Positions 16,753 through 48,648 of a stretch of DNA of 64,000 nt are shown in pieces. Made by a program: the position numbers and the translations under genes. Source of the DNA: Candidatus Wirthbacteria bacterium (GTDB lineage Bacteria > Patescibacteriota > CG2-30-54-11); NCBI GenBank assembly GCA_903889905.1, contig CAISZI010000047.1:80096-144095 (forward strand), read 5' to 3'. The notes under the pieces are model-generated. The model saw only the letters and a list, made by a program, of their open reading frames with translations, was not told the origin of the DNA and searched no databases. The stretch's first letter is position 1. Every line of letters starts with the position of its first letter.

Positions 16753-17832
16753 ATGAACAAAACCCTCAAACTGCTTCAAGCCAATCTGCTGGAACTTACC
16801 CGCAACCGCGCCGCCATTTTCTGGACGATCATGTTCCCGATCATGTTCATCCTCATCTTTGGCTTGATTTACACCAACAACGACACCAGCAAACTCAAAG
16901 TCGGCCTGGTGGTAAACGACCCAAGCCCGGTGACCCAGCAAATCAGCGACAGCGTCGCCAAAATCCCGGTATTTGAAATCAAGTCCGGGACGCAGGCTGA
17001 CCTCGAAGACCAGCTTAAAAACGGCAAATTGAGCGCGGTCATCATCTTTGGCCAAACCTTTAGCCAGGATCTGGCCAAACAAAAAGCGGAAATCATCATC
17101 AAGTACGACCCCGGCAGTCAGACCACGGCACAAATCGCAATCTCGGCCTTGCATGCGGCGACCGAACAAATCAACCAAGGCATCACCCAGGTCAAACAAC
17201 CCGTTACGGTTGTCTCCACTTCGGTGCAAGCCCAAAAAACGCGCCAGATCGACTGGCTCGTTGCCGGCATCCTGGGCATGTCGATCATGCAGCTCGGTTT
17301 GTTTTCCTCGGCCGCGCTGGTCACGCTGCGGGAAAAGAAAATCCTGCGGCGCTTTGCCGTGACACCGGTTAGCCGCATCCATATCGTCATCGCCCAGGTT
17401 CTCTTCCGTCTCTGTTTTGGACTGACCCAAAGTACCGTGCTGCTGATCACGGGACGACTCGTTTACCACGTGCAAATTGACGGCAATATCCTGCTCATGT
17501 ACGGCGTCATCATCCTGGGCCTGATGATGTTCCTCGCCATGGGTTACATCATCGCCTCGCTTGCCAAAAACGAGGAAGTCGTGGAACCGCTGGTTCAAGT
17601 CTTCAGCATGCCGATGATGTTCCTGAGTGGCGTATTCTTCCCCATCGACCTAATGCCCAAATTCATCCAGCCCGTGATCAAAATTCTGCCCCTTTCGTAT
17701 CTCAACAACGCCCTGCGTGCCGTCATCAATAACAACCAAAGCCTCTATGCCATCCGCATGGACATTACGGTTATGGCTATCTGGCTGGTTGTGTCGCTGG
17801 TGGTGGCAGTTAGATTATTCAAATGGGAATAG
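16753..17832 (+). CDS. ABC-2 type transporter permease
   Basis: Six TM helices with a large N-terminal extracytoplasmic loop; typical ABC-2 family layout immediately downstream of the ATPase. Confidence 0.85.
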   Translation: MNKTLKLLQANLLELTRNRAAIFWTIMFPIMFILIFGLIYTNNDTSKLKVGLVVNDPSPVTQQISDSVAKIPVFEIKSGTQADLEDQLKNGKLSAVIIFGQTFSQDLAKQKAEIIIKYDPGSQTTAQIAISALHAATEQINQGITQVKQPVTVVSTSVQAQKTRQIDWLVAGILGMSIMQLGLFSSAALVTLREKKILRRFAVTPVSRIHIVIAQVLFRLCFGLTQSTVLLITGRLVYHVQIDGNILLMYGVIILGLMMFLAMGYIIASLAKNEEVVEPLVQVFSMPMMFLSGVFFPIDLMPKFIQPVIKILPLSYLNNALRAVINNNQSLYAIRMDITVMAIWLVVSLVVAVRLFKWE

Positions 17833-17876
17833 ACGTAAAATTCTAAATACGAATAACTAACATCCAAACTAAACCA

Positions 17877-17906
17877 GGGGCAGGCTTCACGCCTGCCTCT
17901 TTTTGT
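17877..17906 (+). terminator. intrinsic terminator after the ABC-2 permease
   Basis: GGCAGGC-TTCAC-GCCTGCC stem-loop followed by TCTTTTTGT. Confidence 0.7.
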
Positions 17907-18290
17907 GTCTGTCTTTATCTCCTGTTTGGTGATTAGTGCATAGAATTTAGTTATTATTTCCCTCTCTATCTCTCCATCAATTCTTCACACAATGGCGCTA
18001 TAGTAAGGATGTTGAAAGGTACACAAAACAAAAAATCCAAAATAGCTACTTATCCATCAGTAGGAGATAAAAGCAAAATGCAAAACAAAAAACTCAAAAA
18101 ATTCTGGTCGTCCGCCTACAATTTGCAAGTTCCCCTCAACACCCGCGGTCACCCTTAATACCCTGTCCCCTATTTCCGGGGTAGCACCCGAACACCAGCC
18201 CCGGCTGCTACCCCAAACCAAAATCCGACTTCCAGCCCCGGATTTAGACCAAGCCTTACATTTATTCATTAAAACAAATACCCAACACCC

Positions 18291-18488
18291 ATGCCGTACC
18301 GCTTCCAACTTATTAATGAAAGTCAAAATTACTCAATCTCCCATGATTATCTCTATACTGCCTTTGTCAAAAAGCGTTTGTCTCCTACCCTCCAGCCCCG
18401 GGAGACATTAACCTCAAACATTCACGACAGGTCGAGACCCAGCTTAGCTTTTAATTTTGAGGAAAACCCCATTCCGTCACCAGTCTAA
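18291..18488 (+). CDS. small hypothetical protein with QNYSISHDYLY motif (paralog A)
   Basis: Shares a 35-nt block with ORF 18659..18895. Differences in that block are mostly synonymous (see findings). No clear RBS. Confidence 0.3.
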   Translation: MPYRFQLINESQNYSISHDYLYTAFVKKRLSPTLQPRETLTSNIHDRSRPSLAFNFEENPIPSPV

Positions 18489-18658
18489 TCCCACTGGTAC
18501 GGTTGATCTTGAACTTCCGCCTCAAGTTTGCCTGATGCTATTCACGGCAAACTTTTCCTTACCAGCCATTTTGTAAGCCTTACCGCCCCCACATGGTTGA
18601 CCTCTACCGCTATTCAGACTATAATAATATGATAATCAAATTTCTATGAACTGCAGCC

Positions 18659-18895
18659 ATGCACAAGCCCCGTTCTCGACATCTTTACCAAAACTACTCC
18701 GTAGCCCATGATTACCTTTACGTTAATCATGGCAAACCAATCCTTTCGGGCAGCCCGAGAATGATTTTTAAATACGACAAACAGACCATCTTTGGCCCAC
18801 CCAAAAGGCAAAATTCAGCAACCATGACCAGAACCAAAGCAACCGCCGATCCGCCACTTTCACTCTTGGGTAAACTGGGCCAAATGTTATTTTAA
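18659..18895 (+). CDS. small hypothetical protein with QNYSVAHDYLY motif (paralog B)
   Basis: Same conserved motif as 18291..18488, with codon-level conservation. Confidence 0.3.
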   Translation: MHKPRSRHLYQNYSVAHDYLYVNHGKPILSGSPRMIFKYDKQTIFGPPKRQNSATMTRTKATADPPLSLLGKLGQMLF

Positions 18896-18961
18896 GCATT
18901 GCTACTCACCTCGCTGCGTGGTATAGACAACCCATCGGCTATTATGTAGAGGCAGGTAGCG

Positions 18962-20822: not shown

Positions 20823-20855
20823 CTCCGTCAAGACTGACGGAGTTTGTTTTTTGTG
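20823..20855 (+). terminator. intrinsic terminator after trpS
   Basis: CTCCGTCA-AGAC-TGACGGAG hairpin followed by TTTGTTTTTTGTG. Confidence 0.65.
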
Positions 20856-20894
20856 TTAAAATTATACCCTTTGCTTATTATTTCCAAGGTGCCT

Positions 20895-23800
20895 ATGCAA
20901 CGGTTACGCTGGTTTGTCCTGATGGTTATCGCCACGCTGTTGACGACGACAATGCCCGCAATGACAGTCAAGGCGGCAACTACCCCTAGCCCGATCAATA
21001 TCATCAAACCACTCCCTATTGCCGACACTCCCCTGACCGGTCTGATCGTCAAACTCAAAGACGGCATCGCTGAAAGCTATCTGCAGAACCTGATTACTCC
21101 CCCCAAAACGACTTTGCCCGTGACGACCGCAAAAAAGACACTTGCAACCACGCAACCCATTATCAAAGTAAGCACTGCAAGTTTGACACGCTTGTACAAC
21201 ATTGGTAGTGATGGAACGAAAAACCCCGCCACAATCAGCCCACCCAGACTTTATCTGATCAACACAGACACCACCACGGCAGACGTTCTTAGCAAAACCC
21301 TGCTCAGTGATGGTAAGGTGGATTATGTCGAAAAAAATCTGACTCGCTCCACCTCTGCCGAGCCCAATGACCCTTATTTTAGCCAGCAGTGGGCTCTCAA
21401 CAATTCCGGTCAAAATTTCGGTACTGCGGGCGCAGACATTCAGGCCATCAATGCCTGGACCCTGCAACCCGCAAAAACGCCTATTACCGTGGCAGTGCTC
21501 GATACCGGCGCTGACCTGGCACACGAAGACCTGGTCGGCAATTTCTGGACTAATAACAAAGAAATTCCCGGCAATGGCATCGATGATGATGGCAATGGCT
21601 ATGTCGACGACACGCTGGGATGGAACTTTGTCAGCAACAACAATCAACCCGTCGACGGCAGTGGCCATGGCACCCACGTCAGCGGCATTATCGCAGCCAC
21701 CCGCGACAACAACAAAGGGATTGCCGGCATTTGTGGCAACGACGCAGCGCTTGGTATCAGTGGCTGCAAACTGATGGAACTCAAGGTGTGTAATGACAAC
21801 AATAGCTGCAATTATTGGGACATCATCCGGGGTATTGTGTATGCCGTCGACAATGGCGCTCAAGTCATCAACCTGAGTTTGGGTTCTACGGCTTACTCAC
21901 AATCTGAACAGGACGCCATTACTTATGCCTGGAACCGTGGGGTTGTGGTGGTCGCCGCAGCAGGCAATAACAGCACGAACACCCGCGTTTATCCGGCGGC
22001 CAATGATCATGTACTGGCGGTCGCCGCAACCGACAATGGCGACAATCCGGCTTATTTTTCCAGTTATGGTGACTGGGTGGATCTGGCGGCGCCTGGGGAT
22101 ACCATCCTCAGCACGACGTTAAATAACGGCTACCGGACCTTGAGCGGGACGTCCATGGCCTCGCCGCATGTGGCGGCGGTTGCTGCCCTGGCCAAAATGC
22201 AGCATCCCTCCTGGACCAATGACCAGATCGCGACTTTGCTGCAATCTTCTGCAACTTCCATCGACAATCACTATATGACCTATGCCGGCCTAATCGGAAC
22301 AGGTCGCGTGAGTGCCTATGCAGCACTGGCCAACGACAACCTCATGACCTCACAATTGCTTACGCCACTTCTCTATGGAACTTACAACGGAGCACAGATA
22401 AATATCGTCGGCAGTGTTACCAACTGGAGTGAGACGGGTACAACCTCTCAGCTGCGGTGGAATCTAGAATTCGCCAGCGCCAACTCTCCGGACACATGGA
22501 CCTTCCTCACTCCACTTGCTGTTCCCCGCTTCTACCCCAACGCCGAGTTGCTCGCGACCTGGGACATCCATACGCTGGTGGACGGCAGGTACTACCTTCG
22601 TTTTACTGCCAACACGTACTCCTCGATGAAACGCCCTTTTCCCGCCGGCGAGCTACTCTATCCCTTTCGCCAATTGGTCAAAATCATCCCCATTAACATT
22701 GATCACACCTCGCCCGTGGTCCAACAACCAGGCTGGCCCCAAAACACCACGGGTAGCAGCATCTTTTCATCGCCACTGATCACTGACCTGGACGTTCCCG
22801 GCACCTCTTTCAATGGCCAGGAAGTCATTGCCGGCGACATTGGCGGCAACCTGTATGTCTGGAATGTCGACGGCTCAATACGCAGTGGTTTTCCCAAAAG
22901 AATCAGCTCGCCCGGTGATGGTATTTATGGCGCGATCAGCGCCGCTGACATTGATGGCGACGGCAAACAGGAACTGTTTGGTACCACGTTTAATGGCAAT
23001 GTCTTTGCCATACGCAATGATAGCTCACCCGTTGCTGGCTGGGAAACTCCCAAACAAATGGCCAGAATGTGGGCCGTTGCACCCATCCTGGCCGACATCA
23101 ACAATGACCACAAGCTCGAAGTCATCGTGGTCGATGGCAATGGCACACTTAATGTCTGGAAAACCGACGGCACTCTACTTTGGACCAGAACACTCGCTGG
23201 TGGAGTCATTCATTCTACCCCAGCTGTGGCAGACATCAACCGTGATGGCAACAAGGAAATAGTCATTGGCACGGCTAACAAACAACTGTTTGTGGTTAGT
23301 GGCGACGGCGTTGTGACTCAAATCGCCACAACCGCCGGCAGTGTTAATGGCGAAATTATTCTGGCTGATCTGGACCAAAACAATTCTGACCTGGAAATCA
23401 TCGTGCCTTCCAACAATTCGTCGACTGATGGCAGCGTGCAGGCCTTTGAACCAAACGGTGCTCTGCGCTGGCAAAACAACATTGCTTCTTCTCTCTACGA
23501 TTTGGCGGTAGGCAAATTGGATTCGTCCAAAACCACTTTAAGCGTCGTCACGGGTGACTTAAACGGCAAAGTTGCTGTTTGGGACGCAGCTGGCATTGGC
23601 GGCAATATCGCCACACTGGACAGCGCCATCAAATCCCAACCACTTGTCGCTGATTTCAATGGTGATGGCCAACAGGAAATTCTCGTCACCAGTTCCACCG
23701 GCAAAGTGTATGTGATGAACAAAACTGGAACCCAATTGCTCGCGCAACCCTACCCATTATCGACAGGTGTCGAAAACGCATCTCCCACGATCGGCAGTGT

Positions 23801-24185
23801 CGATCAAAACGGCAATATTGAAGTCGCTTTTGGCAGTACAGATGGCAAAGTTCAACTGCTAAGTTTCAAAGGCGCACTGACCGCAACGTCGGTTGAATGG
23901 GGAACGTACCATGGGAACAATACCCGTACCGGCGAATACAGTCATCTATCCACCCAGGCTGGCGACGCCACGCTCAATGGCACGATCAGCTCGCTCGATG
24001 CCTATTATGTCTCACAATACCTGGCCGGCTCCATGACACTCTCAGCACAAGCCTACGAAAACGGGGCAAAAATGTGGGCACCTTATGACTCCATCACCAG
24101 CGCCGACACCATGGCCATTTTGTATTGCTCAGCCAGCGGTTTGCCATACCCACGCTGTCTGGGTGGATTTGTGGCGCAAAACTAA
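20895..24185 (+). CDS. secreted subtilisin-like serine protease (peptidase S8) with C-terminal FG-GAP/beta-propeller repeats and a dockerin-like tail
   Basis: Signal peptide (start MQRLRWFVLMVIATLL with AAGGTG RBS). S8 catalytic triad motifs VAVLDTGAD, GHGTHVSG, GTSMASPHVA. At least six DxDGDG/DINxDxxxE FG-GAP-like repeats. C-terminal GDATLNGTISSLDAYYVSQYLAG resembles a dockerin Ca-binding segment. Confidence 0.8.
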   Translation: MQRLRWFVLMVIATLLTTTMPAMTVKAATTPSPINIIKPLPIADTPLTGLIVKLKDGIAESYLQNLITPPKTTLPVTTAKKTLATTQPIIKVSTASLTRLYNIGSDGTKNPATISPPRLYLINTDTTTADVLSKTLLSDGKVDYVEKNLTRSTSAEPNDPYFSQQWALNNSGQNFGTAGADIQAINAWTLQPAKTPITVAVLDTGADLAHEDLVGNFWTNNKEIPGNGIDDDGNGYVDDTLGWNFVSNNNQPVDGSGHGTHVSGIIAATRDNNKGIAGICGNDAALGISGCKLMELKVCNDNNSCNYWDIIRGIVYAVDNGAQVINLSLGSTAYSQSEQDAITYAWNRGVVVVAAAGNNSTNTRVYPAANDHVLAVAATDNGDNPAYFSSYGDWVDLAAPGDTILSTTLNNGYRTLSGTSMASPHVAAVAALAKMQHPSWTNDQIATLLQSSATSIDNHYMTYAGLIGTGRVSAYAALANDNLMTSQLLTPLLYGTYNGAQINIVGSVTNWSETGTTSQLRWNLEFASANSPDTWTFLTPLAVPRFYPNAELLATWDIHTLVDGRYYLRFTANTYSSMKRPFPAGELLYPFRQLVKIIPINIDHTSPVVQQPGWPQNTTGSSIFSSPLITDLDVPGTSFNGQEVIAGDIGGNLYVWNVDGSIRSGFPKRISSPGDGIYGAISAADIDGDGKQELFGTTFNGNVFAIRNDSSPVAGWETPKQMARMWAVAPILADINNDHKLEVIVVDGNGTLNVWKTDGTLLWTRTLAGGVIHSTPAVADINRDGNKEIVIGTANKQLFVVSGDGVVTQIATTAGSVNGEIILADLDQNNSDLEIIVPSNNSSTDGSVQAFEPNGALRWQNNIASSLYDLAVGKLDSSKTTLSVVTGDLNGKVAVWDAAGIGGNIATLDSAIKSQPLVADFNGDGQQEILVTSSTGKVYVMNKTGTQLLAQPYPLSTGVENASPTIGSVDQNGNIEVAFGSTDGKVQLLSFKGALTATSVEWGTYHGNNTRTGEYSHLSTQAGDATLNGTISSLDAYYVSQYLAGSMTLSAQAYENGAKMWAPYDSITSADTMAILYCSASGLPYPRCLGGFVAQN

Positions 24186-24197
24186 TCCGTTTCTACT

Positions 24198-24599
24198 TCA
24201 GGGCTCTCCTTGGCTAACTTTACTGATACAAATTGACTGTTTGCTATCAAATTTATAATACCAGTCACCACCACTGTAATTGGTCAGTGATCTTATTTTG
24301 CCACCCAGAACTTGGCAGGCCAATGGATTGGTGATGAAACAGCCTTGTGCATAGCCTGAATCGTGCGGCCCAAAATCTCCAACATCATAGTAATAGTTCC
24401 GTCTTGTTCCACCCAACAAACTGCAGAACATGGAGTTGGTACTGCCGAGTTTGTTTTGATAAACCCCACCTGCTTCATTAATATTTTTCAGCAGCACGAA
24501 GACACAACCGGCGGCAAGAATCAGCACAACAGCAACTATTATAATGATCTTGATATGGCGCTTTATCCAGAAAATCACCATTTTGATTATGGAAAACAA
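24198..24599 (-). CDS. small Cys-rich type-II membrane-anchored protein, paralog 1 (N-terminally truncated relative to its paralogs)
   Basis: TM IKIIIIVAVVLILAAGCVFVLL, then an ectodomain with CSLLGGT and GCFITNPLACQVLGGKI motifs. The ancestral start ATG is followed by TAA, where the paralogs have TCA. Confidence 0.5.
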   Translation of the reverse strand: MFSIIKMVIFWIKRHIKIIIIVAVVLILAAGCVFVLLKNINEAGGVYQNKLGSTNSMFCSLLGGTRRNYYYDVGDFGPHDSGYAQGCFITNPLACQVLGGKIRSLTNYSGGDWYYKFDSKQSICISKVSQGEP

Positions 24600-24660
24600 A
24601 TGGGCAAAAGTTGGAAATGTTTCTTTGATTTACATTGCAAATCACCTTAAACTTATAAGC

Positions 24661-25086
24661 CTAGAATCTAACTCCATTACAAGAATCTGCCGCATTTTGA
24701 GTCTGACAAATTGGTTTATTTGAAGTGCCTTGGAACTCATCGCCGCACGTTTTTGGTACTAATTTTCCACCTGCTATAAAACAAGTATCAGGTGAAGTAA
24801 CAAAACAAGTACTTTTGAAATTGTTGTATTTGTCTTGAGGTGGCAGCAAGATAGTTCTATATTCGCCACCGATAACAGCGCATGTTAATGAATTATTGAT
24901 TAAACTTGAATTATAAGTAAATATTGAGGAATAATTTCCAAGCGTCGTTGATTCCCCAACCAATCCATAACGAAACAAAAAGTACATGCCTAAAACTAAA
25001 ATTATTACAATCCGATTGATCCGTAACTTTCGCCAATTTACGATGAAAGAATGATAGAAACTCGACATCGTTTCTTTGAATGCCAT
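24661..25086 (-). CDS. small Cys-rich type-II membrane-anchored protein, paralog 2
   Basis: N-terminus MAFKET..., TM helix, ectodomain with CAVIGGEY and CFVTSPDTCFIAGGKL motifs. Confidence 0.55.
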   Translation of the reverse strand: MAFKETMSSFYHSFIVNWRKLRINRIVIILVLGMYFLFRYGLVGESTTLGNYSSIFTYNSSLINNSLTCAVIGGEYRTILLPPQDKYNNFKSTCFVTSPDTCFIAGGKLVPKTCGDEFQGTSNKPICQTQNAADSCNGVRF

Positions 25087-25160
25087 GTTTATTTACCTTT
25101 AAAAAAAATTGGCACGACTTTATAATTCAGTTGCAAATCCGTGTAATTCCCACTCGGCTT
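25087..25160 (-). repeat. duplicated copy of the last ~70 nt (C-terminal SGNYTDLQLNYKVVPIF plus stop) of the 1447-aa gene
   Basis: Near-identical to 25797-25870 (4 substitutions); lies immediately upstream of the paralog 2 start. Confidence 0.6.
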
Positions 25161-25163
25161 CAA

Positions 25164-25604
25164 TTAATAATCGGATAAATTTCTAAAAGTGCAGACCGAT
25201 TGCATGCTGTTAAACTTAATAGATGGTCCATCGACACCTTCAGCTCGTGCTGTTATTGTAATGATTTTCCCTCCAATCATGACACAGGCTAAGGGACTTG
25301 ATATAAAACATCCATGGTCGTGAATGCTAGTATCGACGCCAGGTGTCCACCCGCCGTTAGAGGTATACTCCAAATAACTCCCACCCATAACTCCACAAAG
25401 CAACGCGCTGTGGCTGGCGAGCTTGTTGTGATAAACACCAACTAAAATATTGATATTAAGCAAGACGAAAACACAATATACAGCAATTATCAGCGTTATC
25501 TTGACCCAACGTTTCAACTGGGTAAAACTTAATATAATTTTGGTTAACAGGTTTACAAAAGTCGGAAAGATTTCCTTAACAGACATAGTGTTCCCTAAAA
25601 ACAA
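25164..25604 (-). CDS. small Cys-rich type-II membrane-anchored protein, paralog 3
   Basis: Likely start MSVKEIFPTF (25586). TM ITLIIAVYCVFVLL; ectodomain motifs CGVMGGSY and GCFISSPLACVMIGGKI closely match paralog 1. Confidence 0.55.
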   Translation of the reverse strand: MFLGNTMSVKEIFPTFVNLLTKIILSFTQLKRWVKITLIIAVYCVFVLLNINILVGVYHNKLASHSALLCGVMGGSYLEYTSNGGWTPGVDTSIHDHGCFISSPLACVMIGGKIITITARAEGVDGPSIKFNSMQSVCTFRNLSDY

Positions 25605-25653
25605 TGTTAATTCTACAAGCTAACGGTACCACAAGTATTATAAGTTTATCCCC

Positions 25654-25782
25654 ACAAATTCTTGGTAAGAATCCCCCCCGCAACGAGCAGTATCCTCTTG
25701 GACTTTTTGTAACTTGGCTATCAACGACTTAATTCTGGGAATTGGAACGATAAAACTCGGAAAGGCTTCTTTGATTGACATA
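25654..25782 (-). pseudogene. N-terminal fragment (MSIKEAFPSF..., about 45 codons then stop) of the same small-protein family
   Basis: Conserved N-terminal motif MS(I/V)KE(A/I)FP(S/T)F followed by a premature stop; no TM or Cys-rich domain. Confidence 0.4.
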
Positions 25783-25793
25783 GCTTTTTACCT

Positions 25794-28700
25794 TTAAAAA
25801 ATCGGCACGACCTTATAATTCAGCTGCAAATCCGTGTAATTTCCACTCGGCTGCAGGTTGTTGGATTCAAATTTAAACGTGAGATAGGCAAAATCCTTGC
25901 CCTCGATCTCACCTGAGCTTGCGGTTCCGTTATACAGGACTTCATAAAACTGCTTGAGGTCATCAAACCCAGCCCAGGTATCAGGATTGGCAAAACGATT
26001 ATGGGTACCGGTCCCCAGTGACCCATCACTGGTGTGGTAGCCGACAAACGCCGTATCCTCACCCACGGTTGTGCCCAACGGCGAGGCCCAGGCAACGGGC
26101 GCGGCATTGGTACCGACAGTGCCATTTTTGACAAAATCCACCACCACCGACGAATTGGTCTGCAAAGCCATTTTCTGGCTGGCGCTAATGTAGACGCTAT
26201 AACCCGATTGGGCATTGGAAACAATGCTGACTTTCTCTACCGCGGTTTTGGGTACGTTGGGCAAGACCTGGGTGATGGCCACCAAACCGTTTTGCCCACT
26301 CAAATCGATCTCGCCGCGATTCGTGCCTTCCAATACCAGCGAAAGCGAAGGTTGAATCCAGGTCGTAAGCTGCGCGTTGTTGGAAAAGGGCGTTTCCAGC
26401 TCGTCGGTGTTGCGCGCTTTCACTTTGACCGTATAGGTTTCGCCTCCGCTCAAGCCGCTGAGCAAAATCCCGCCTTCGCTGCCGAAGTCAGCGTAGGACT
26501 TCCAGTCCGCAGCATGCAACGTGGTGGCCAGCGTCAAATTGGCCTGCACATAACGTGTGTCGTGCACAAAATTATCTGAGGATATTGCCACCGCGAGCAG
26601 CACGGAAGCGGGATTGCTGCCATTGTCCAAAATCACATGCATTTTGGTGTAGTCACCATTACTGAGTATGGGTGCTCCCGGCGTGTTGGCGGCCGTATAA
26701 CGACTCAAAACGCTGCTGTATGCGGAATTCCCCGCGCCGTTCTGGGCTCGAATTTTGTAAACATGAAACGTATTGGGCAGCAGGCTGGTGTGGGCAAATG
26801 TGGTCACATTGGCGGCGGGTGCGTTGAGTTGAGTAAACATGCTGCCGTCCGTGGAATGTTGCAAATCGAAACTGTCTTCCTGGGATTGGCCACTGGCGTT
26901 GTCGGTCCAGCTGAGGCTGATCGCCGTTGGCGTGATCGACGTTGCAACCAGCAAACTAGGAGCCGCAGGGCTGTCCTGCATACCAAAAGCTGCGGGAGAA
27001 CTCCAGACCCCGGTATTGCCTTCCGCATCCCAAAAGCGAAGACGATAATAATACGTAACATTGCCATCATTGGTCGTCAGGCTTTGCAAAGGTGTGCTGC
27101 CAAAGCTGCCATAGACCAGATTGGAGTTGCGGCTGCCGATGTTGACGGATGCAATTGCTGTGCCACTTGCGCCACTGTCCCAGTGCGTAATTGAACCAAA
27201 AGAATTGTCGGTTGAAACCTGTATTTCGGCTTTGGTCGCGGTGTCACCACTGTCGGCATCCTGGTAGACTGCGCTAAAAGCGGGTGTGCTGCTGGTCAAA
27301 CTGATCGGGTTGGCACGACCGGTTTGAGCCGAAGTATTGTCGACATAGAGCGTTGTCGGCGCTGCTGGCGCGTTTTGGTAATCCAATGTAATCGAACTCA
27401 ATTGTGGCGAAGGACCCGTAAAATAGGTGCGAAAAGCAAAGGCACCGCTGCCGACTTCACTGACAAAACTGCTCACATTACTGTTCACTGTACTGGCATC
27501 ATTGCCAATCAGGCCATTGGGAGCCACCACCCAGGCGTTGCCTTGATGCATGTACCAGGTGCTGCCACCATCATTGGAAAGTTGGTAAGTCAGCAACCCG
27601 TTATGTCCACCACCGGTTACTTCGTCAAAGCCAACCAGTTTGGTAAAAATGGGTCGATATGTGGCATTGGAAATCGTCGGCACAAATTCGCTGCGACTGA
27701 TGTTTTTGGCATTCACCAACGCAGCAATCTGACCGGAATTAAATGGCGCGTCAGCAATGCGGACTTCGGCGATCACGGCATCGGCTTGATTTTGGTCACT
27801 TATATCCGCGCCCACATGAATCGTACTCCCCAACGATGGCGGATTAAAACCACCGCTGACTGCTCCGGCCACCCCATTGACATAAAGCTGCATGTCACCA
27901 CTCCCCCAATTGGCCACCACCTGGTACCATTTCCCTGGCACCCATACCGACACATCAAACGTGGCGTCATGTACTCCGTCGTTCAAGGTCAACTGTCCCG
28001 CGCTGGATTTGAAGAGTTTGAATTGACCGACGCTCGTGTCAAGTGTGAATAACGCATGTTCAACCCCATCAGTGCCACGCCAAAGTGGTTCCACCCACAA
28101 ACTGAGGCTGCCCGCCGCTGCCTGCACATGACCAGTGGTCAAAAAATGCAACACGTCGTCGCTCCGGGTACTGGTACTGTTGTTGGCCGAACCGGTCCAG
28201 GCGTAACCCGTTCCCAGCGAACCATCACAATAACTGGTGCTGGCCTGGTTGGCCTCAACCTGGAAACCATCAAGATAGAGATGCTGCCCGGCTTTGACCG
28301 CCACCCCAAAATCTTTGACGGCAAGGCTGGCACTCACATTTTCGGCTGCCAATCGCCACCAGCCCCCGCCCAAATTTTGATATATTGTCGTGACCGTCGC
28401 ATTATCATAATAAAGTTCGGCTACACTATTCGTCACTGTTCCACCCAGACTACCTGATGTGGCATTGTAAACAAAGGCCGACAGACTGACCGTGCTGGCG
28501 CCAGGATTCAGAGCCGTCGTATAGGTGCCGTCCGCATACAGATAAGTGTTGTCCAATTTGACCGAATGCGCCCCAAAGCGGGCAAAACTGACACTGCTGT
28601 TGTTACTCGCCGAAAGTCCGGATGACGACCAATGACTGTTGTAGGTGCCCGCCTCAAAGGACGGATTTAATACCAGATTGCTGGTGCCGCGCTCAATCAC

Positions 28701-33442: not shown

Positions 33443-34597
33443 CTAAAAGATTGGCTTGGCGATAAAGGTAATTGTATTGGCATAGTTACCCGAAGGCTGC
33501 AGGTTGTTCGTTTCCAGTTTGAATGTTACATCAGCGCGATCTTGACCGTCAACATCACTCTGTGTGGCATGACCATGATAAAGCACTTCAGATGAAGTAG
33601 CCGTGAGTCCTGCCCAGGTATCCGCATCGGTAAAACGGTCAGCCGTGCCCACACCCAATGTCGCGTCGCTGGTGTGGTAACCAAGGAACCCGGTATCCAC
33701 CCCGATCGTTGTCCCGGCAGGAATCGCCCAGGCAACAGGAGCGGCATTGGTGCCAACCAGAGTGTTTTTGATCGGGTCAATATCAATTGTCGCGTCAGCA
33801 CTGTGCTGCATGTTGTGATCCTGTTTGACGTAAACCGTGAAACCCTGCTTGGCGTCAGTATTGACCTTGAGGCGCATAACAGCGGTTTTGGCAACACCAG
33901 GGGTCACTTCGCGCCATTCAATGAAGTTGGGGCCAATAGTGCCACCCGCAGGAGCGGTCTGCCCAGCCACGGAAAAAGTCATCTGGGGTTTCTGTGAACC
34001 ATAAATGTCAACATGTTCGATGGTGGCGACCAGAATATCAATCGTATCAATGGTGGCACTAGTGCCATCCTGGGAGGTCACATCAACATTCCAAATATCC
34101 GCCGTGCCGGTTGCGGCGACTTTGGCCGGGTTCAAGATCTGATGCGTGCCACCCGCATTGGTTCCAATCTCAATCGTGATAGCTGACGCTGCAATCACCG
34201 TATCTGTGTCATTATTGGTCAGGGTGATGCTGCCGCTTGTGCCAGAAACAATATCCACGCCCCAGGCTGAATCCGCGCCGGTGCCTGGAGTTGCTGCCAG
34301 AGTTTGTGCCGTGACACCGAGTTTCAGACTGATGTCGCCAAACACCAATCCAGCAGGAATGCTGAATTTGGTGGCTTCCGGTGTAATCACCAATTTCCCG
34401 TTTACCGGGATTGTCTGTACCGTCGTGAATTTTAGTGTCCAGTCTGACGCTGTCGACGGATTGGAATCACTGAGCTCGAGGGAAGCCGCGTTGAACTGAT
34501 ACTGCACCGCGTGGGCAATGTTGGTAAATGGGATCATTGCCAGCACGAGGGTGCAGGTCATGGCCCAAGATAGCCATTTTTTGTTTTGCAGGTTCAT
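33443..34597 (-). CDS. secreted protein (384 aa) with C-terminal WxL-like domain
   Basis: Signal peptide. C-terminal ~110 aa are homologous to the 1447-aa protein C-terminus and end GNYANTITFIAKPIF, comparable to the WxL pattern G.Y....W.L...P. Confidence 0.6.
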   Translation of the reverse strand: MNLQNKKWLSWAMTCTLVLAMIPFTNIAHAVQYQFNAASLELSDSNPSTASDWTLKFTTVQTIPVNGKLVITPEATKFSIPAGLVFGDISLKLGVTAQTLAATPGTGADSAWGVDIVSGTSGSITLTNNDTDTVIAASAITIEIGTNAGGTHQILNPAKVAATGTADIWNVDVTSQDGTSATIDTIDILVATIEHVDIYGSQKPQMTFSVAGQTAPAGGTIGPNFIEWREVTPGVAKTAVMRLKVNTDAKQGFTVYVKQDHNMQHSADATIDIDPIKNTLVGTNAAPVAWAIPAGTTIGVDTGFLGYHTSDATLGVGTADRFTDADTWAGLTATSSEVLYHGHATQSDVDGQDRADVTFKLETNNLQPSGNYANTITFIAKPIF

Positions 34598-37317: not shown

Positions 37318-40300
37318 TTACTTGACGGAAGATTTTCGTTTTTTGAGGACGAGGAACAAGCCATAGGCAGCAATCACGGCAAGCACGATCAGGATGACCA
37401 CGCTGAGGTTGGTACCCGTACCAGCCAGGACTGAGACAAAGGGAGCGGTCGTGGTGGCGCTCAGGACCTGAGGTACCGTCACCATGACGGTCGCAGAAGC
37501 ACTCGCCGTCCAGCTGCCAGAAGTCGCCGTGGCAATGTTGGTGTAGTAACCAGCCAGGTTGGCTGACTTGGTCTGATAGGTGACAATGATGTTGTGACCA
37601 GCGGCAAGGTTGAGGCCTGACCAGGTGATGCTACTGGCGGTTGTGTTGACCTGGGGCTCAGCAGCGGTACCGGCGACGTTGGCAGAACCGGCAACATAGG
37701 CAAATCCAGGTGGAAGAATATCTTGCAGAGTGAAAGTAATTGCGGCATTACCATTATTGCTGACAGAAACCGTATAGCTGACATTGTTGCCATGGACAAC
37801 GGTTGTCACATTGGCGGCTTTACTGATCAAGAGCGGATTGGGTGTCGGTTGCGTCGGTGGTGTCACAACGGTCACGGTCGCATGGGCTGTATCGAAGGGA
37901 CTCCCCTGAATGTCGGTGAGCGAAGCCAGGTTGGTATAGGAACCGGCTGCCGCGGGAGCCAAAGTTGTGTATGTAACAATGGCAGTGGTATTGGCGGCCA
38001 GATTAACTCCTTGCCAGACCAGGTAAACTCTACCATTAACGGTTGACTGCTGGGGAACGGCGGCTTGTCCGTTGATCTGCGCCTGACCGGCATAAGTGAA
38101 GCCAGCGGGCAAAAGATCAGTGATGAACAGATTGGTGGCATTTTGGGCAGTGGAATTTTTGAGCGTCAAGGTGTAAGTGATGACCCGGTTGGTGTCGCTA
38201 TCCGTGCTGTTAACCTGGGTTGGGCTGGCCACTTTGGTCAGGGACAGGTTAATCAGTTTGACGGTCGTGGTGTCACCATAAGTGTTGGTCATGGTGAGAT
38301 CACCATTGGCTGGCCAGGTGCTGAAGTCTTTGACAGTAACTTCGAAGCGACGGGTAACCGTGGCATTGGCGGCAAGGTCGGCAGCGGCCCAGCTGATCTT
38401 TTCGATCACACCATCTTGATTGACATCGGTCGTTGTGAAGGCAGGATCGGTGGTGACGACTTTGCTAAAGTTGCCGGCATAACGCGTCAGATTGGAGACA
38501 TCATCGGTAAAGACAAAGCCAGGAGCAACGTTGCTGCTGTGATTGATGGCAGTCAGGGTATAGACGAGCTGATCACCGGCGCGCAGGGCGCGATTCACGG
38601 CTCCCCCATCAACGAATGAGACAGCTTTATGCAATTCAATGGAACCAACTGGAACCTGGGTCTGGTTTCCAAAAACGTTGCTCATGATGAAGTTGCCGGT
38701 GGTGGGCAGCGGATTTTTGACCTGGACCTGGAAGGTGCGAGACGCTGAACTTCCGGCATTGATTGTGCCGATCGTGGGCCAGACCACGGAATTATTGACC
38801 AGAGTACCACCGTCGGAAGCGGTTTTGAAGTCGGCATAGGTCAGCACATTGCTGATCTCATCCATGAATTTGTAATTGACGGCTGTGCCATCACCTGAGT
38901 TGCTGACTTTAAGGGTGTAGGTAACGATATCGCCAGCCTGGGCTGTGCTCGATTGGGCATCTTTGTTCTGTGTGGTGTTGAAAGCGGATTTGGACAGGAC
39001 CAGATTGCTCAGCGGGACATGGATGGTGATGGTTGTTTCACCATGATATTCCTGATTCTGAAAGGTGAAGGAAGCGACGTTTTTGACCAGATCGCCTTCT
39101 TTGAACCCATCGGCTTTGAGCACGGCATCCAGCGTAAAGACTTCGGCATTGTTTTCGGAGGTGCCGGCTTTGACGGTGATTTGCTGAGTCTGATAGTCAG
39201 TGCCAATGTATTTGGTACCATTATTGTCAGCATCCTGATTGAGTACGCCGATTGAAGCATACTGGGTGGCGTCAAGCACATCATTGACTGTAAGCGACAA
39301 GTCGCCGTTGCCCTCGTTCCAGACCAGGACTTTGTATTCAACCGTAGCGCCGGGGATGGCATTGACTTTGTCAAAGAAATTTTTGCCATCGAGGCTGACG
39401 TATTTCTTGATCGCGGGTTTGGGTGACAGGACAACGTTGACTTTGACGATGTTGCTGGGGACATTATTGGCCCAAACCTGGTTGGTGAGGCTCATGGAAT
39501 TGCCGGGGAACGGCGATTTGACCACCGCCTGAATGGTGAAGGATTCAGTCTGACCGACATCGAGGTTGGTGAGGGTCATGTTGTCCCAGCTGCCCACAAA
39601 CGCTTTGCCATCGGCATCGCTGTCGGCGTTATTCACGCCAATGTTGGTGAAGTAGGTGTCGCGGCCCTGCAGGGTGTCGGTGACGTTAACGGAAGGAATG
39701 GCGACATAACCATTGTTGATAACTTCAATTTTGTACTGGAGTTGATCGCCAGGAGCGGCAGTTACATTGTCCACCACCCAACCGGAATTGGTAGTGAGAT
39801 TGCGGACATATTTGGTGACCTGCAGGCTGGGGGTCAGGCTGACTTTGACCACGGCTTTGTCTTCGGCCAGCACATTGAGGGTACGGGTCTGCAAAGCGCG
39901 GGCAATGTTTTCGTTGCTGGTTTCGTTTTGATAGAAACTGGGACGGATCTGTGCTTCGATCAAGTAGGTGCAACCCGTGCACATATTGGCAGGATTGGTG
40001 GCGTCAGAACTACCGGCTGGCACAAGAAGCCCCTGAACAAGCGCGATGGTGCTGTCATGATAGGTGGAAGCAAAGTAGGTGGCAGTCAGCACGTCGCCAG
40101 TATTGGTGTGTTTGTAGACTTTGAGCTGATCATAGATGCGTTGGGGTGAGGTGAAGTCAACCACGTCGGACAGGTTCACGGTTTCGCCCAGCTGGCCGGG
40201 ATTGGAAACCACGACGCGATAGGTGACCCAGGTGTCGTTGGACGTGTGATCCAGAAGCAAAGTTTTGGTCCAGGCATTGCCGGAAGCAATCTTGCCTTCT

Positions 40301-43300
40301 TTGACATCTTTGGTGATCTGGACGTTGGCCGCTTTGACAGCATTGACGTTCACGATCGCGGTCGACGTATCCTGGAGTTCGGCACCGATCAAGACTTGGG
40401 CCGTATTGGTGAACTGCGTGTCAGTTTTGACCGAGGGTGCTTTGGCGCCAATGGAAATGATGATTGATCCACCTTTGACCAATTTGAAGCCGTCATTGTT
40501 GTTGGGCCAGACATAGGTGGTGCTGTTGTAGGAACTGTTGTAACTGCTTACCGGGGTCATCAATAACTGGCTGGTGACATTGCCGCTGCCGTCTTTGATG
40601 GTGATTTCGGCGCGTTTCACTACTTGTGAGTTACCAATCTGTTCCATCATTGCGGTGAAGCCAGGTGGCAGGACATCTTTGACAAAGACGTTGGTCTCGT
40701 CGCGTCCGCCATTGTTATTCACTTTGATTGTCCAATCGGTTTCGCTCAAACTTTCAACGGTCTGGTTGCTGGGCGATTTGAGGATGCTGAGGGAAGTGGT
40801 GGGTAGCGGTTCTACCATAACCGTGGCTTCGGCAATATTGCTTTGTCCGCCAATGAATTTGGCCTGGGCACGATTGATGTAGGACGTTGCGACGGTTGGA
40901 TTGACGTTAACGAGGGCGTTGAAGACGATCTGGATCTGCTGGGACTGATTGGGTGCCAGGTTGATGGCATGGCCATAATTGTCCTTGGTCCACCAGAGTT
41001 CAACGGTCTTGGCGGGATCAAGTGCGGTGCAGCTGTATGACTGGTTGACTTTGTCCCAGGCGCAGGGGCCGGTAGGGTGTTGCTGCGTGATGCCAGAGGT
41101 AACACCTGCATAGGTAAACAAGGGGCCACTCGCGTCCTGTGGCAAGAAGTCGACGATGGCGACGTTATTGGCTGTGTGATTACCGTAGTTGGTGGCGGTG
41201 ATGGTGAATTTGATCTGTTGACCAAAACTGGTGGTCTGGGAATCAACAACTTTGGTAACCCGCACATCAGGTGAAACAATTTTGACCGTGATGGTATCGC
41301 CATAAGTGTTGGTCATAGTGTTGTCATGGTTGGTCTGGATATCGCCAGCTTTGACATAAAAGATGTAGCTGATCGTCTGACCGGGAGCAATATCAGGATT
41401 GTTGCCTTTGACCAGGGTGAGCTCCGAGCCGCTGCCCTGGATTACGCCTTCGCCCAGTTTGACGTTTTCGCTTTCGGTCCAGGGGCTGTTCACGTCATCC
41501 ATGACCTGGGAAATATTGTCGCTGAAGATAAAGCCGTGCATGGGTGCGCTGCCGGTATTGGTGGCGGTCAAGGTGTACTTGATCCAGTCGCCGGGATTGG
41601 CGGGGTTGGTTTCAGGATCCATTTCACGATCGGGTGTTTCGATCCAGGCATATTTGTGGAGCACAATATTGGGATTGGCGTTGATATTGAGCACCGCACT
41701 GGATTGTTTGACTTTGCTGCCATAGGCGACCTGGGCCATGTTGTTGACAATGGTCGTGCCGGACTGGAGCATATCGGCTTTGACTTTGGCCGTCAGGGTA
41801 TAAGTAATGCTGGAACCAGGCGCAAAGTTCACGTTACCCGTGCTGCTCAAAACAATCGGATTCGGGATTGGCTGGGTGTAGGTGTGGGTGTAGTTATTGG
41901 GACCGCTTACGGTGATGGAATCAAACACCGAGACATCGGGGTTGCCATTGATGGACATGAGGTCGGTAACAGCGCCCGTTTCGGGTGCGGTGCCAGAGTT
42001 ACCCACCTTGATCTGGTAGTAAGCGGTGTCGCCAGCTGAGACGAGAGCGCTGCCGCTATTCGTGCTCCAGCTCGGGCTGCTGCTGACGAATTTATTGATC
42101 CACATGTCAGAATCGACAACGATGTCACTGTCCACGGCGTGGTTGTTGGCGGGATTGACATCACGGGGAGAGGCATTGATGACATCGGCCAGATTGTCGA
42201 TGGAAGTTCCGGCCGTGACAGAAGATTTGAGTTTGATCGTGACTTGTGCAGTTGCGGTCTGGCCCAAAGGCAGATCAAAGGCTGACCAGAGGATCTGGCC
42301 GTTGGTATTGCTGACTACAGGATAAGAATGCGTCCCCAATGTAATGCTGGTAGCAGTCGCTGTATCCAGAAGGGAAGCGGCAGGAAGTGTGTCGGTCAGG
42401 ACAACGCCCAGGGCGGTCGTGGTACCATTGGAACCATCGTTGGTGATCGCAAGGGTATAAGTCGTGCTCGCGCCGGGAAGCAATGTCGTGACGCCGTCGT
42501 CTTTGGTGACTTTGACGTCCACGCGGGGCGAACTGACATAAACCACGGCGCTGGAGGAGCCAATCAATTTATCGTTGATCGATGCCGTAGCGGTATTGGT
42601 GTAACCAGTCGTCAAACTTTCGGCAATCGCGGCAGGAACATTAACCGGATAATTAATCGTCAGGGATGAACCAGCGGGCAGAAAGGAAGGAGTGCCGCAA
42701 GTCCAGGTGACGCTCTGGCCGCTCACGTTGGTGGCGCAGATCACGGTGGTGCTGCCGACTTTGGCAACGGTGCTGCCATCCACATAACTAAAGACATGGC
42801 CATTGCTGTCCTGGGGCAGGTTGTCGGTGACGATAACCTTGTCGCCGGCAACGTTGCTGGTGCTGTTGTTGGTCACGGTCACAGAGTAGTTCAAGACTTT
42901 GGCGTGGACGGTATCGGTATCCATCTGATAGCTGCTCGTTCCCTCTACAAGCTTGTTGATCTTGCCGGAAAGGCGAGTACCCACGTCAACCCAGGCACAG
43001 CTGACACCAGGGATCGCGTGAACATCACTGCCGTCTATAACCACCGTCGAGGCACAGTTCTGAAGACCATGACTGCCCGTTCCTGGTGGCTGGCTGGCGC
43101 TTACCTTGGTGCCGAAATAAAAAGTTACATTATGCCCGCTGAAATTGCTCGGTTGCACTACCCATTCCACCGTCGTGTCATGTTTAACCGTTTCCGCTAA
43201 ACTCACACCCGATGTCACAATTTGTCCCAAACCGCCATAGCTTGTGTTGGCTGGTAAAAGATCCGAAATCAATAAGCCGCCGAGTCCGACGGAACCTATT

Positions 43301-46300
43301 TCGGTAACACTAATCTTCCAGATCGCGTTATCACCAGGCATGACCAACGGATTAACTGCTGTTTTGGTAATCACGATATCCCGTACCGGGACATTAACGG
43401 TCTTGCCCTGAAACGAATTGGTCATCACATAGTTTGACGTACAATTCAGGCCGGCGCCAACCCCAGTGCTGATGGAACAAACTGGCCAGGTATCGGATGT
43501 GTTGATCACGACCACGAAGGATTCGGTAATCGTCTGTCCGGCGGGTATGGTTTTGGTTCCCCAACTGATCGTATTGCCATTAACGGTGCCATTATCCGAA
43601 ATTGACAATATGTGCGCGAATTGGAGAACACCGCCAATGTCGTCACTGAAGACAAAATTGGGATAATCTGCTTTACCTGTGGTCTCGGTGACGGTTAAGG
43701 TGTACTGCACCGGATAATAGGGATAAAGCGGATGATCTGCGCCGGCGATAATGGTTGAATTGGGCAGTGTTGCCGTTTTGTTAAAGCTGAGGTTGGGAAC
43801 GAAGTGGCTGACATAAACCACAGCGCTGGCTGAACCAACGGATTTGGTGACAGTGGAAGTACTGATCGTTGCCGTGGCGGTATTGGTGTAGCCAACTGTC
43901 AGGTTATTGGCAATCGCGGCAGGCACGCTGACCTGATAATTAATCGTCAGGGTAGCTCCAGCGGGCAGAAAAGAAGGAGTTCCGCAAGTCCAGGTGACGC
44001 TCTGGCCGCTCACGTTGGTGGCGCAGATCACGGTGGTGCTGCCGACTTTGGCAACGGTGCTGCCATCCACATAACTGAAGACCTGGCCATTGCTGTCCTG
44101 GGGCAGGTTGTCGGTGACGATAACTTTGTCGCCGGCAACGTTGCTGCTGCTGTTGTTGGTCACGGTCACGGCATAGTTCAACACTTTGGCGTGGACAGTG
44201 TCCATTTCTATCTGATCACTGCTCTGGCCTTCAACTTGCTTGGTTATGTTTCCTGTCAATCTGGTGCCAACGCCCACTTTGGCGCAGCTTTGGTTGGAGG
44301 TATAGCCATCGTCCGCAACCACGGCGCAGTTCTGGAGGCCGTTCGTCTGCACCACGGGAGGCTGACTGGCATTCACTTTGGTGGCAAAGAAGAAACTAAC
44401 GCTCTGCCCGCTGTAGGTGCTCGGCGCAACCGTCCAGGTGACGGTGTTGTGGGCGGCATCCAGGGATTCACTCAGTGAAATATTGGGTGTCACAATCTGA
44501 CCGAGCATGGCATAAGTCGTGCCAACGGGGAAAGTATCTTTGATCTGCGCGCCGCCCATGCCCATATTTCCGATTTCTGTGGCGGTGATTTTCCAGATGG
44601 CGTTGTCGCCAGACAGGACCGTGGGGTTGACCACGGTTTTGACAATGACCAGGTCACGCAGTGGCACATTGACTGTGACACCGTGGAAATTATTGGTCAT
44701 GACAAAACTGGAGGTGCAGCTCGTGCCGCAACCAACCCAGGTATTGGAAGGATTGACAACGACTTTGAATGTTTCGGTCATGGTCTGACCAGCCGTAATC
44801 GTGCCGCTGCCCCAGCTGATTGTGGTTCCAGCCACAGTGCCGGTCGGTGAAATGGCGGTTACGTTGGCGTATTTGAGGATATTGCTGATGTCATCGCTAA
44901 AGTCAAAGTTGGAATAATCCGCCTTACCTGTGGTTTCGCTCACGGTCAAGGTATAGAGCACGGTGTCGCCGGGGTAAGCGGGATGCAAGGCATCGGGTGT
45001 ACCGGTTTTGCCACCCGCAAATTGCGCTGTTTTGTTAAAGCTGAGGCTGGGGACGTAGTGATTGACATAAACATTGGCCGAATCCGTGGCGGTTTTGGTG
45101 ATGGAAGCGTAGCTGCCAGTGGCGGTCACAATGTTGTAAATGTCGGCGGTGACATTGAGTTTGACTTTGGTATAAGACTTGAAAGCACCATTGGTCAGAT
45201 TAAAAGTCGGAGCACTGTCAAGGTTGCCCAACTGGTCGTCAATAACGGAAACATTTGTCAGGGGTACGTTCCCGTTATTGGTAACTGTGTAACAATAGGT
45301 GACGGCTGTGCCGGAATCCACATGAACTTGTTTGACGAGTTGGCCATTTGCATCCAGTGGGCAGGAGGAAACACTACCCACGGCCACAGTTTTGACCACT
45401 GTGATCGAGGGTGCCGGGGAAACGGTGACACAGACAAAGGCTTTGTCAGTCGCCGACAAATTGCGGGCATTGCTTGTGCCAGGAATGGTAAAGGTGGTGG
45501 TGGCGGTGACAACGTTTTTGATCACCTGAGGACTCACGTTCATGGTCTGCGATTTGCTCAAGGGCTGGCTGGCACCTGCGGCAAGGGAGGCGATGGTGCC
45601 GATATTGCCCAGTTTGTCATCGTTCACCAGGACGTTGGTCAGGGTGACGTTGCCAGGATTGGTGACCTGATAGCAGTAAGTGACGGTTGAACCTTGAATG
45701 ATATTAAACGGATTATTGACGTCAGTCGCTATGCCAGGGCACTGGCCATTGTTGGAAACGGTTTTGACGATCGAAAGCTGAGGATTATCAACAATGATAC
45801 TGGCCGAAGCAGTCACTGTGCCATTGTTGTCGGCAACAGCAGTCGCGGTATTGGTGTAGGAATCGTTGTGCGTTGCGCCGGCGGTGCTTGCATTACCGGT
45901 TACGGTCACGGTACGGCTGCTATTGGGATTAACGTCGCCGAAGTTGCAGCTGATCGCATTACCCGTGCCCGAACAGGCGCCAGAATAGTTTGTGTTCGTA
46001 AACTGGCTGGGAATCGTGTCGGTCAAAACCACGTTATGGGCCAACCCCAGACCATTATTGGTGAGGGTGATTGTAAACTGGATGGCGTCGTTCAAGAAAA
46101 CTTCAGGAGTCGAAGTCGTTTTGGTAATGGCGAGAATAGGAATCAAGACGTGAACATTGGCGGTAGCTTGAATTTCACTGACCTGGTCAGCATGGGTTCT
46201 GGCAACGTTGGTGGAATCCTGTGCAACGCTGGCTTTACCTGTAACCGTGATGGTATGGCTGGTTCCGGCATTCATACTACCAAAATTGCAAATCACTGAA

Positions 46301-48588: not shown

Positions 48589-48648
48589 GCAACCTCCCTG
48601 ATAAAGCAGATAAAATCTAGGTAAAAAAGTAGAAAACAACTTTCAGGT

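Follow-up and report, generated by a model that had tools for sequence, protein, structure and literature searches.

A lineage-restricted array of small cysteine-rich, putatively membrane-anchored proteins behind a conserved surface-protein operon in a Wirthbacteria-related bacterium

In the orphan modules of contact-dependent inhibition (CDI) systems, startless fragments of the toxin C-terminus (CT), which begin at the pre-toxin motif and are toxic when expressed, are followed by immunity genes. These cdiA-CT/cdiI modules are thought to have been displaced by incoming pairs (PMC9086364). The subject here is an array of small genes at 24198-25793 on the minus strand of a 64,000-nucleotide (nt) stretch of Candidatus Wirthbacteria bacterium DNA (GenBank assembly GCA_903889905.1, contig CAISZI010000047.1, positions 80,096 to 144,095), and this whole stretch is called the window below. 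The array follows a gene for a protein of 1447 amino acids (aa), the big gene, and includes a copy of that gene's 3' end. Lineage-specific tandem families that evolve by birth and death are a general phenomenon. The reading favored here, which has about an even chance of being right, is that the array is a lineage-specific accessory cassette islet, shaped by birth-and-death evolution and enlarged via recombination anchored in the 3' end of the big gene.

Read from 5' to 3' on the minus strand, the order is the big gene, a remnant cassette, the paralog P3, the copy of the big-gene 3' end, P2, an ATG-TAA pair, and P1 (Table 1). Labels such as P0013 denote database proteins (P0001, P0012, and P0013), and L001 to L007 denote contigs or loci. 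Three paralogs and a remnant had already been noticed in a sequence-only reading of the stretch; all are seen as open reading frames (ORFs) on the minus strand, and the three paralogs align as one family. The AT-rich block noticed at the same time has 38.3% GC, and the two flanking genes have 52.3% and 53.0% rather than the roughly 55% first given. The array is the deepest and widest GC trough of the 64-kb window (minimum 0.333 against a mean of 0.512, standard deviation 0.04). At least three same-strand ORFs of at least 127 aa arose in none of 2000 dinucleotide shuffles of the block. In protein-guided codon alignments of all pairs, including the outside family member P0013, identity is highest at the second codon position, lower at the first, and lowest at the third, which is the coding signature of an old constraint at the protein level. 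The genes of the array are real and protein-coding. Third positions of the paralogs are near random (identity 0.31-0.41), with an overall nucleotide identity of about 60%.

The intervals 25103-25162 and 25796-25855 are 92% identical, and with gaps the repeat extends to about 113 nt (25745-25856, copy A, and 25049-25163, copy A'), with a spacing of 693 nt from A to A'. A copy between the second and third paralogs had thus been correctly placed by the sequence-only reading and put too short, at 70 nt. The repeat starts within the big gene, of which it holds the last 20 codons; it then spans a spacer, where there is an AAAGG ribosome-binding site, and reaches about 12 codons into the head of the next cassette. 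In copy A the coding part reads LQPSGNYTDLQLNYKVVPIF and stops; past the spacer and its ribosome-binding site, this copy takes in ~12 codons from the start of the remnant. In copy A' it reads LKPSGNYTDLQLNYKVVPIF, a TT insertion in a run of T destroys the stop, and the spacer, the ribosome-binding site, and the head of P2 come next. No A-like sequence was found upstream of P3, P1, or P0013 (p 0.12-0.93), and P2 alone has one. The similar 3' end of the 384-aa first gene of the operon was ruled out as the source of A', since just 11-12 nt matches are common to both. A' begins right behind the P3 stop (25164-25166) and in the same frame, and read-through of this TAA would append LKPSGNYTDLQLNYKVVPIFFKGK. 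The shared frame is probably a coincidence, with a chance of 1 in 3.

The window sequence recurs at 100% identity in two independent ENA metagenome contigs, over 26195-24997 in L001 and 25840-24997 in L002, A' included. Because both reproduce the duplicated fragment, it is no assembly artefact of this record; its absence from other sequence data would have marked it as one, and it is present in both contigs without a mismatch.

The two copies are also informative about age. Over their 20 codons A and A' have six differences, five of which are synonymous; the sixth exchanges Q and K at a residue that is H in the orthologs of the big protein. Of 18 third positions, 4 are different between A and A'; in the paralogs third positions are saturated, so the junction copy is much younger than the gene family. 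All four of the internal differences are synonymous, a pattern that a neutral A', left to drift after a duplication in situ, would show with P between 0.016 (counting all changes) and 0.085 (counting transitions only). The sample is small, and the pattern is suggestive: it is the one expected if both copies evolved while serving as functional gene ends, A' in an allele of the big gene.

These numbers bear on a simpler explanation, a plain tandem duplication in situ with ends 60 nt inside the big gene and just past a small-gene stop, after which gene conversion by the selected copy A would have kept A' similar while the small genes diverged fast, all within a single lineage. The geometry of direct repeats 693 nt apart is what a tandem duplication leaves. 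In addition, P1 and P3 form a pair (42-45% aa identity), as do the head of the remnant and the position of P2, as if a two-gene unit had been duplicated once. However, 4 differences in 18 third positions of A and A', set against paralogs with an identity of 0.31-0.41 at such positions, make a single event impossible unless conversion is added, and synonymous-only differences are unexpected in a neutral A' (P 0.016-0.085). This explanation is considered somewhat unlikely but is a serious rival.

In the history proposed, the cassette islet is an insertion flanked by the conserved operon of the surface protein on one side and the convergent protease gene on the other. The paralogs are old, given their saturated third positions, and the single extra copy of the big-gene 3' end is young. 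An incoming segment made up of a big-gene end (A), the ancestor of the remnant, and P3 may have recombined into a resident arrangement of big gene, A', P2, and P1. Its source would most likely have been a related strain with other cassettes. On its left the segment could have been integrated through homology in the big gene and on its right through an illegitimate join, as in homology-facilitated illegitimate recombination, which has been described for naturally transformable bacteria. An unequal exchange between alleles would give the same outcome. Either way, the resident junction A' would have been pushed downstream together with P2 and P1. Deletion in the remnant, loss of the P1 start, and truncation of P2 elsewhere would then be later decay and make up the birth-and-death turnover. 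The recombination suspected by the sequence-only reading is borne out as far as the big-gene 3' end and the small-gene cassettes are concerned, shown by the 113-nt repeat; its likeness to toxin-CT/immunity arrays is not, as described below.

A ribosome-binding site lies 12-15 nt past the stop of the big gene, the cassettes are on the big gene's strand, and no terminator-like site was found on the minus strand within the array. Going by these features of the DNA, read-through from the operon is the most likely way in which the cassettes would be expressed.

The small proteins share a conserved N-terminal head, MS-x-KE-x-FP-[ST]-F, and four Cys and two C-x3-GG motifs are invariant across P1, P2, P3, and P0013. 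Each has one hydrophobic 19-mer (mean Kyte-Doolittle 2.1-3.4) preceded by 17-32 residues with a net charge of +2 to +4. The conserved Cys are all found on the C-terminal side of this helix, in a domain of ~90 aa. An N-region of 17-32 residues is too long for a cleaved Sec signal, so that a signal anchor with the N-terminus in and the C-terminus out is likely. By these sequence criteria each protein is likely bitopic (type II), in agreement with the N-in transmembrane (TM) helix and Cys/GG ectodomain read from the translations at the outset. AlphaFold2 (pLDDT 72, moderate) predicts one helix over residues 3-42 and then, twice, a short unit of Cys helix, GG, and beta-hairpin. The two halves of the ectodomain align as a module of ~37 aa, [ST]-x-[NS]-x-x-x-C-x3-GG...C, with an hhalign probability of 87.5% (E 3.6e-6) that is somewhat flattering, since the module boundaries were picked from the motif. 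The ectodomain thus reads as an internal duplication of this module. One disulfide per module is the most likely arrangement, which in P3 would be C64-C93 and C101-C132.

The weakest step of the proposal concerns function. The products would be variable, surface-exposed, disulfide-stabilised accessory proteins of the envelope, and they may possibly work with the laminin G-like (LamG) surface protein that the big gene encodes.

The family is nearly an orphan and is restricted to one lineage. Two word-indexed searches (5.8 billion clusters, with P3 and with a four-member profile) and an exhaustive HMMER profile search (1.84 billion representatives of ~15 billion proteins) recovered only P3, P1, and one outside member, P0013. 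The latter has 151 aa, is 26-28% identical to P3 (alignment and BLASTP), and carries the same motifs and the head MSGKEIFPTF, identical to that of P3 in 8 of 10 residues. It sits on L004, an ENA contig of 622 nt. Family-bearing sequence outside the window is likewise AT-rich, with 40% GC in L004 and 33% in the tail of L001. At L004:1-121 a truncated frame upstream of P0013 ends in RWTRICQLVILVLGGGLISFWLNLVNATN and a stop and looks like a basic stretch and a TM helix. It hints at a neighbouring decayed cassette, and so at an array there too, by a similarity that is not significant.

P2 is absent from the collections of ~15 billion proteins, though P1 and P3 of the same contig are present; gene callers apparently skipped it, and at 35% GC (30% at third positions, GC3) it is the most AT-rich gene of the array. 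No record was returned when P1, P2, the remnant, and the big protein were looked up by exact match. Against Pfam (full proteins at E<=1, ectodomains at E<=10), PHROGs, PADLOC, NCBIfam, and a PDB profile, the small proteins gave nothing or TM-helix-only matches. The absence of recognisable homology to toxin or immunity families, stated beforehand from the sequence, was found again in these five collections. Helicobacter Cys-rich Sel1-repeat proteins appeared among the PDB results (E 0.07-1.5) and were rejected, since these matches lack significance and the family is predicted to fold as helix and hairpin rather than alpha/alpha.

Small, membrane-anchored, lineage-restricted proteins with a GC content 14 points below the host DNA, at a break of synteny, could also be what is left of a phage or mobile element, in the manner of moron-like or superinfection-exclusion-type membrane proteins in an intergenic site. 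However, PHROGs gave only TM-helix noise, BFVD gave no structural match, and IMG/VR and INPHARED held no relatives by protein pattern or DNA. Scans for tRNA genes and Rfam families over the whole window gave no match, and around the array no inverted repeats of more than 20 nt and no phage-like ORFs were seen. A mobile-element origin is thus quite unlikely.

Individual copies in the array are decaying. The fourth copy, previously described as an N-terminal remnant of roughly 45 codons, has 47, and its first 26 residues match the family with p 0.0005-0.002 against P1, P3, and P0013 and 0.03 against P2. After codon 26 the family match is not secure (p 0.04-0.4). When an internal deletion joining head and C-terminus was considered, the assignment of the tail came out ambiguous, as it fits either motif 1 of P3 or GGDWYYKF of P1 (p ~0.04-0.06). 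By alignment the remnant has kept the family head and lacks the TM helix, and only these two points are claimed.

P1 has lost its start. Upstream of it are a strong AAGGTGA ribosome-binding site, an ATG (24633-24635), and a TAA (24630-24632), followed in frame by ATC AAA GAA ACA TTT CCA ACT TTT. The frame behind the ATG-TAA encodes IKETFPTF, the family head MS[IV]KE.FP[ST]F with its Ser codon (TCN) turned into a stop. Loss of the ancestral P1 start through a stop in the second codon had been proposed from the DNA, and the ribosome-binding site, the ATG-TAA, and IKETFPTF all fit the family profile. The TM helix and ectodomain of P1 are intact, its conserved head is cut off, and its internal starts have no ribosome-binding site. 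Probably P1 either became a pseudogene recently or yields a product shortened at its N-terminus. The start-stop at 24630-24650 (minus strand) might also load ribosomes and allow weak re-initiation at TTG 24599 or ATG 24581.

Damage on this scale invites the view that the array is decaying, non-functional DNA whose ORFs are relics, neither expressed nor selected. The remnant, the ATG-TAA of P1, the truncation of P2 elsewhere, the very low GC, and the omission of P2 from public annotation all favor it. Yet three ORFs of 127-141 codons stay open at 38% GC, a result seen in 0 of 2000 shuffles, and the four Cys and both GG pairs are invariant even in P0013, with the head 8/10 identical between that protein and P3 in spite of 26-30% identity overall. 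Pure decay is improbable on this evidence.

The locus differs between populations. L001 and L002 leave the window at the same base, 24997/24996, after codon 30 of P2. Past this breakpoint both run through TTAAGACA and then diverge from one another (L001:1200-1352; L002:845-862), and P2 is truncated in both five codons beyond the breakpoint. Variability of the locus, which was to be expected if this were not a conserved single-copy gene, is therefore present inside P2, where the two contigs differ from the window and from each other. The tail of L001, 153 nt long, holds a 21-codon ORF MSKYSKEVSAIL... and then a second ORF MDYKKVKTDTVAVTRDIRRFD...; it had no match in the window, phages, or IMG/VR. 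Such tails could reflect cassette exchange, a deletion, insertion of an insertion sequence or other mobile element, or branching of the assembly graph.

The breakpoints give some room for a bolder proposal, in which the big-gene 3' end, the spacer, and the 30-nt cassette head act as a portable recombination handle, making the junction a site of cassette exchange at which strains of a CPR-related bacterium trade and accumulate highly divergent small Cys-rich surface proteins that are not toxins. Three independent lesions (in the remnant, L001, and L002) begin just behind the conserved head, at codons 26-30, and a new short ORF in the L001 tail, MSKYSKEV..., resembles a cassette head. Both are hints at exchange. 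The proposal is nonetheless speculative and more probably wrong than right by a wide measure. If true, it would amount to the diversification logic of polymorphic toxin/immunity systems in a new family with a two-module disulfide fold.

The big protein is a membrane-anchored surface protein with two Laminin_G_3 domains, Ig-like and fn3 domains, and a conserved C-terminal domain of ~160 aa. Its gene is the last conserved one of a 5-gene operon, the upstream genes of which are kept in relatives. Full-length orthologs are on L003 (a JGI metagenome contig, 44%), the near-identical contig L007 from a metagenome-assembled genome (MAG), and L005 (Candidatus Wirthbacteria CG2_30_54_11, 45%), and a partial one is on L006, a MAG labelled Saccharibacteria. 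Overall, the best matches to the big gene and its operon are in Wirthbacteria-like MAGs at 43-45% identity. These orthologs conserve the ~160-aa domain, for which Pfam, NCBIfam, PADLOC, and PDB sequences gave no match; it is an undescribed domain, possibly with a role in anchoring or assembly. It occupies 25797-26273 (minus strand) of the big gene and recurs in the 384-aa protein, which ends in NNLQPSGNYANTITFIAKPIF and a stop; both proteins share the ending ...TFK.E.NNLQPSGNY...P-I-F before the stop.

In the relatives the region behind the big gene is arranged differently. In L003/L007 and L005 a convergent gene for a 214-219-aa HExxH protein overlaps or abuts the big-gene stop (L003:7987-7990; L005:6121-6124), and beyond it come DUF4416 and then MFS/spermine-synthase genes. 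A search of the fetched loci L003, L005, and L007 with hmmsearch --max found no member of the small-protein family, and these loci have no AT-rich block or GC trough. The relatives' downstream genes are absent from the window, so the array sits at a break of synteny; an S8/FG-GAP/dockerin protease gene, which is not syntenic, converges on it instead, with just 12 nt (24186-24197) between the P1 stop and the protease-gene stop.

The sequence-only reading had likened the array to toxin-CT/immunity orphan arrays. If so, the big protein would carry an exchangeable effector at its tip, the small proteins would serve as cognate immunity proteins or partners, and A'-P2-P1 would be orphan modules that had been displaced. 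Some immunity proteins against membrane-acting toxins are membrane proteins, which counts for this idea, as does the difference of the locus between populations in L001 and L002. So does a startless upstream 3'-end fragment in front of a small gene, as in orphan cdiA-CT/cdiI modules (PMC9086364). The tip of the big protein speaks against it. Alignments of the big protein reach the final residue, and identity per 100 aa climbs from ~0.35-0.45 to 0.5-0.6 in the tail; in two orthologs identity is 60-65% over the final 20 aa and 52-57% over the final 60 aa, compared to 44-46% overall. The C-terminal tip, which the earlier suggestion expected to be polymorphic in relatives, is by alignment the best-conserved part of the protein instead, and no hypervariable C-terminus is seen. 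In addition, the ~160-aa C-terminal domain is also carried by a second secreted protein of the operon, the orthologs lack a downstream small gene, no toxin, immunity, or defence family was matched, and what A' contains is 19-20 codons from the conserved tip instead of a variable CT domain. The operon genes adjoining the big gene, the only ones scanned for this purpose, encode a PAS domain, an Ig-like domain, and unassigned products, and nothing related to secretion. The toxin/immunity explanation is very hard to sustain, and the likeness claimed for it fails on the conserved tip, the shared domain, and the orthologs without small genes.

Some of the evidence weighs against the accessory-islet reading itself. 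Two of the four copies are damaged and P2 is uncalled in public collections, so that the array may be largely decaying. Instead of cassette exchange, the tails of L001 and L002 might stem from insertion of a mobile element or from branching in the assembly graph, and a second allele of the locus was not recovered: two JGI metagenome scans (with the family pattern and with junction-repeat DNA) and three viral or phage searches came back empty. A link in function to the big protein is suggested by position, and the orthologs of that protein manage without the array genes. Furthermore, the substitution argument on A and A' is based on six differences, and the AlphaFold2 models were built on a 4-sequence alignment.

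Table 1. Features of the array and its surroundings (positions in the window)
Feature	Position	Strand	Basis or remark
Convergent S8 subtilase / FG-GAP / dockerin gene	20844..24185	+	ORF, Pfam; bounds the array
P1, 133 aa from TTG / 127 aa from ATG at 24581 (= database protein P0012)	24198..24599	-	ORF
Ancestral P1 start, ATG + TAA	24630..24635	-	AAGGTGA ribosome-binding site in front
P2, 141 aa, intact in the window	24661..25086	-	ORF
Junction repeat, copy A'	25049..25163	-	Gapped alignment; 100% in L001 and L002
P3, 140 aa from ATG (= P0001); TTG start at 25604 gives 146 aa	25164..25586	-	ORF
Remnant cassette, 47 codons	25638..25781	-	Head MSIKEAFPSF..., without TM helix or ectodomain
Junction repeat, copy A	25745..25856	-	Gapped alignment
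Big gene, 1447 aa	25794..30137	-	ORF, Pfam, full-length orthologs
First operon gene, 384 aa, signal peptide	33443..34597	-	C-terminal ~160 aa = C-terminal domain of the big protein

Some other parts of the window are worth recording. The interval 17800-18950 is poor in ORFs, has 40-45% GC, and shows a strongly negative GC skew (to -0.43). A core of ~32 nt is repeated in it at 18324-18355 and 18689-18720 (78% identity), this stretch being without an Rfam or tRNA match, and two short ORFs in the interval have QNYS[IV][SA]HDYLY in common. Further upstream of the array, giant ORFs run on the same strand, one of 3773 aa at 37318-48639 (minus) and one of 1470 aa at 48750-53162 (minus). The 1470-aa protein has no Pfam match, and AT-rich dips border the giant ORFs (48.4-49.0 kb and 53.0-53.4 kb).

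The array adds a well-delimited new protein family, without detectable relatives, from a poorly known lineage related to the Wirthbacteria. It offers a clean, small case of accessory genes piling up behind a conserved operon by way of recombination in the last gene of that operon. It is also a caution that a 3' fragment plus a small gene does not always mean toxin and immunity; the polymorphic tip could be tested here, and it failed. Should strains prove to exchange cassettes, the locus would serve to mark surface variation at the level of strains in uncultured bacteria.

Among known protein families, DUF333 (PF03891) has the nearest likeness to the small proteins. A profile of seven sequences, E. 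coli YoaF and six plasmid-borne proteins, gave an hhalign score of 16.2 (P 0.013, probability 3.3%) against a maximum of 11.1 in column-shuffled controls (n=30), and module 2 alone gave P 0.0047 and 7.4%. In these alignments module 2 (ITNPLACQVLGGKI...) falls onto NPAS-x-Y-C-x3-GG of DUF333. The Pfam model of DUF333 itself gave no match to the full proteins at E<=1 or to the ectodomains at E<=10, and the likeness reads as one of motif, not of membership. Like the array proteins, DUF333 proteins such as E. coli YoaF are small, extracytoplasmic, and Cys-containing, and the two have in common NP-x-x-(x-x)-C-x3-GG-(K/T)-[IL], a beta-strand, a Gly turn, and a second Cys. DUF333, which has no solved structure or known function of its own, consists of lipoproteins with one module and an E-E-W motif, whereas the array family has a signal anchor, two modules, and no EEW.

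With the orphan modules of CDI/Rhs systems, the array has in common a startless 3' fragment of a large gene in front of a small gene, copy number and content that vary between populations, and the likely displacement of a resident junction by DNA recombining in the conserved upstream gene. The fragment is where they part: in CDI/Rhs it is the variable toxin domain from a VENN- or PT-type motif onwards, and here it is 20 codons of a conserved structural tip. CDI/Rhs proteins have a polymorphic C-terminus and a toxin domain, whereas the big protein has neither and the small proteins match no immunity family, so that, going by sequence, only the geometry of the published modules is shared. Closer in kind are the lineage-specific tandem families of small secreted or membrane proteins, which likewise combine old paralogs, pseudogenes, and odd composition within one lineage. 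Unlike these, the array hangs physically, and probably transcriptionally, on a conserved operon at its 3' end, and the junction has been copied along with it.

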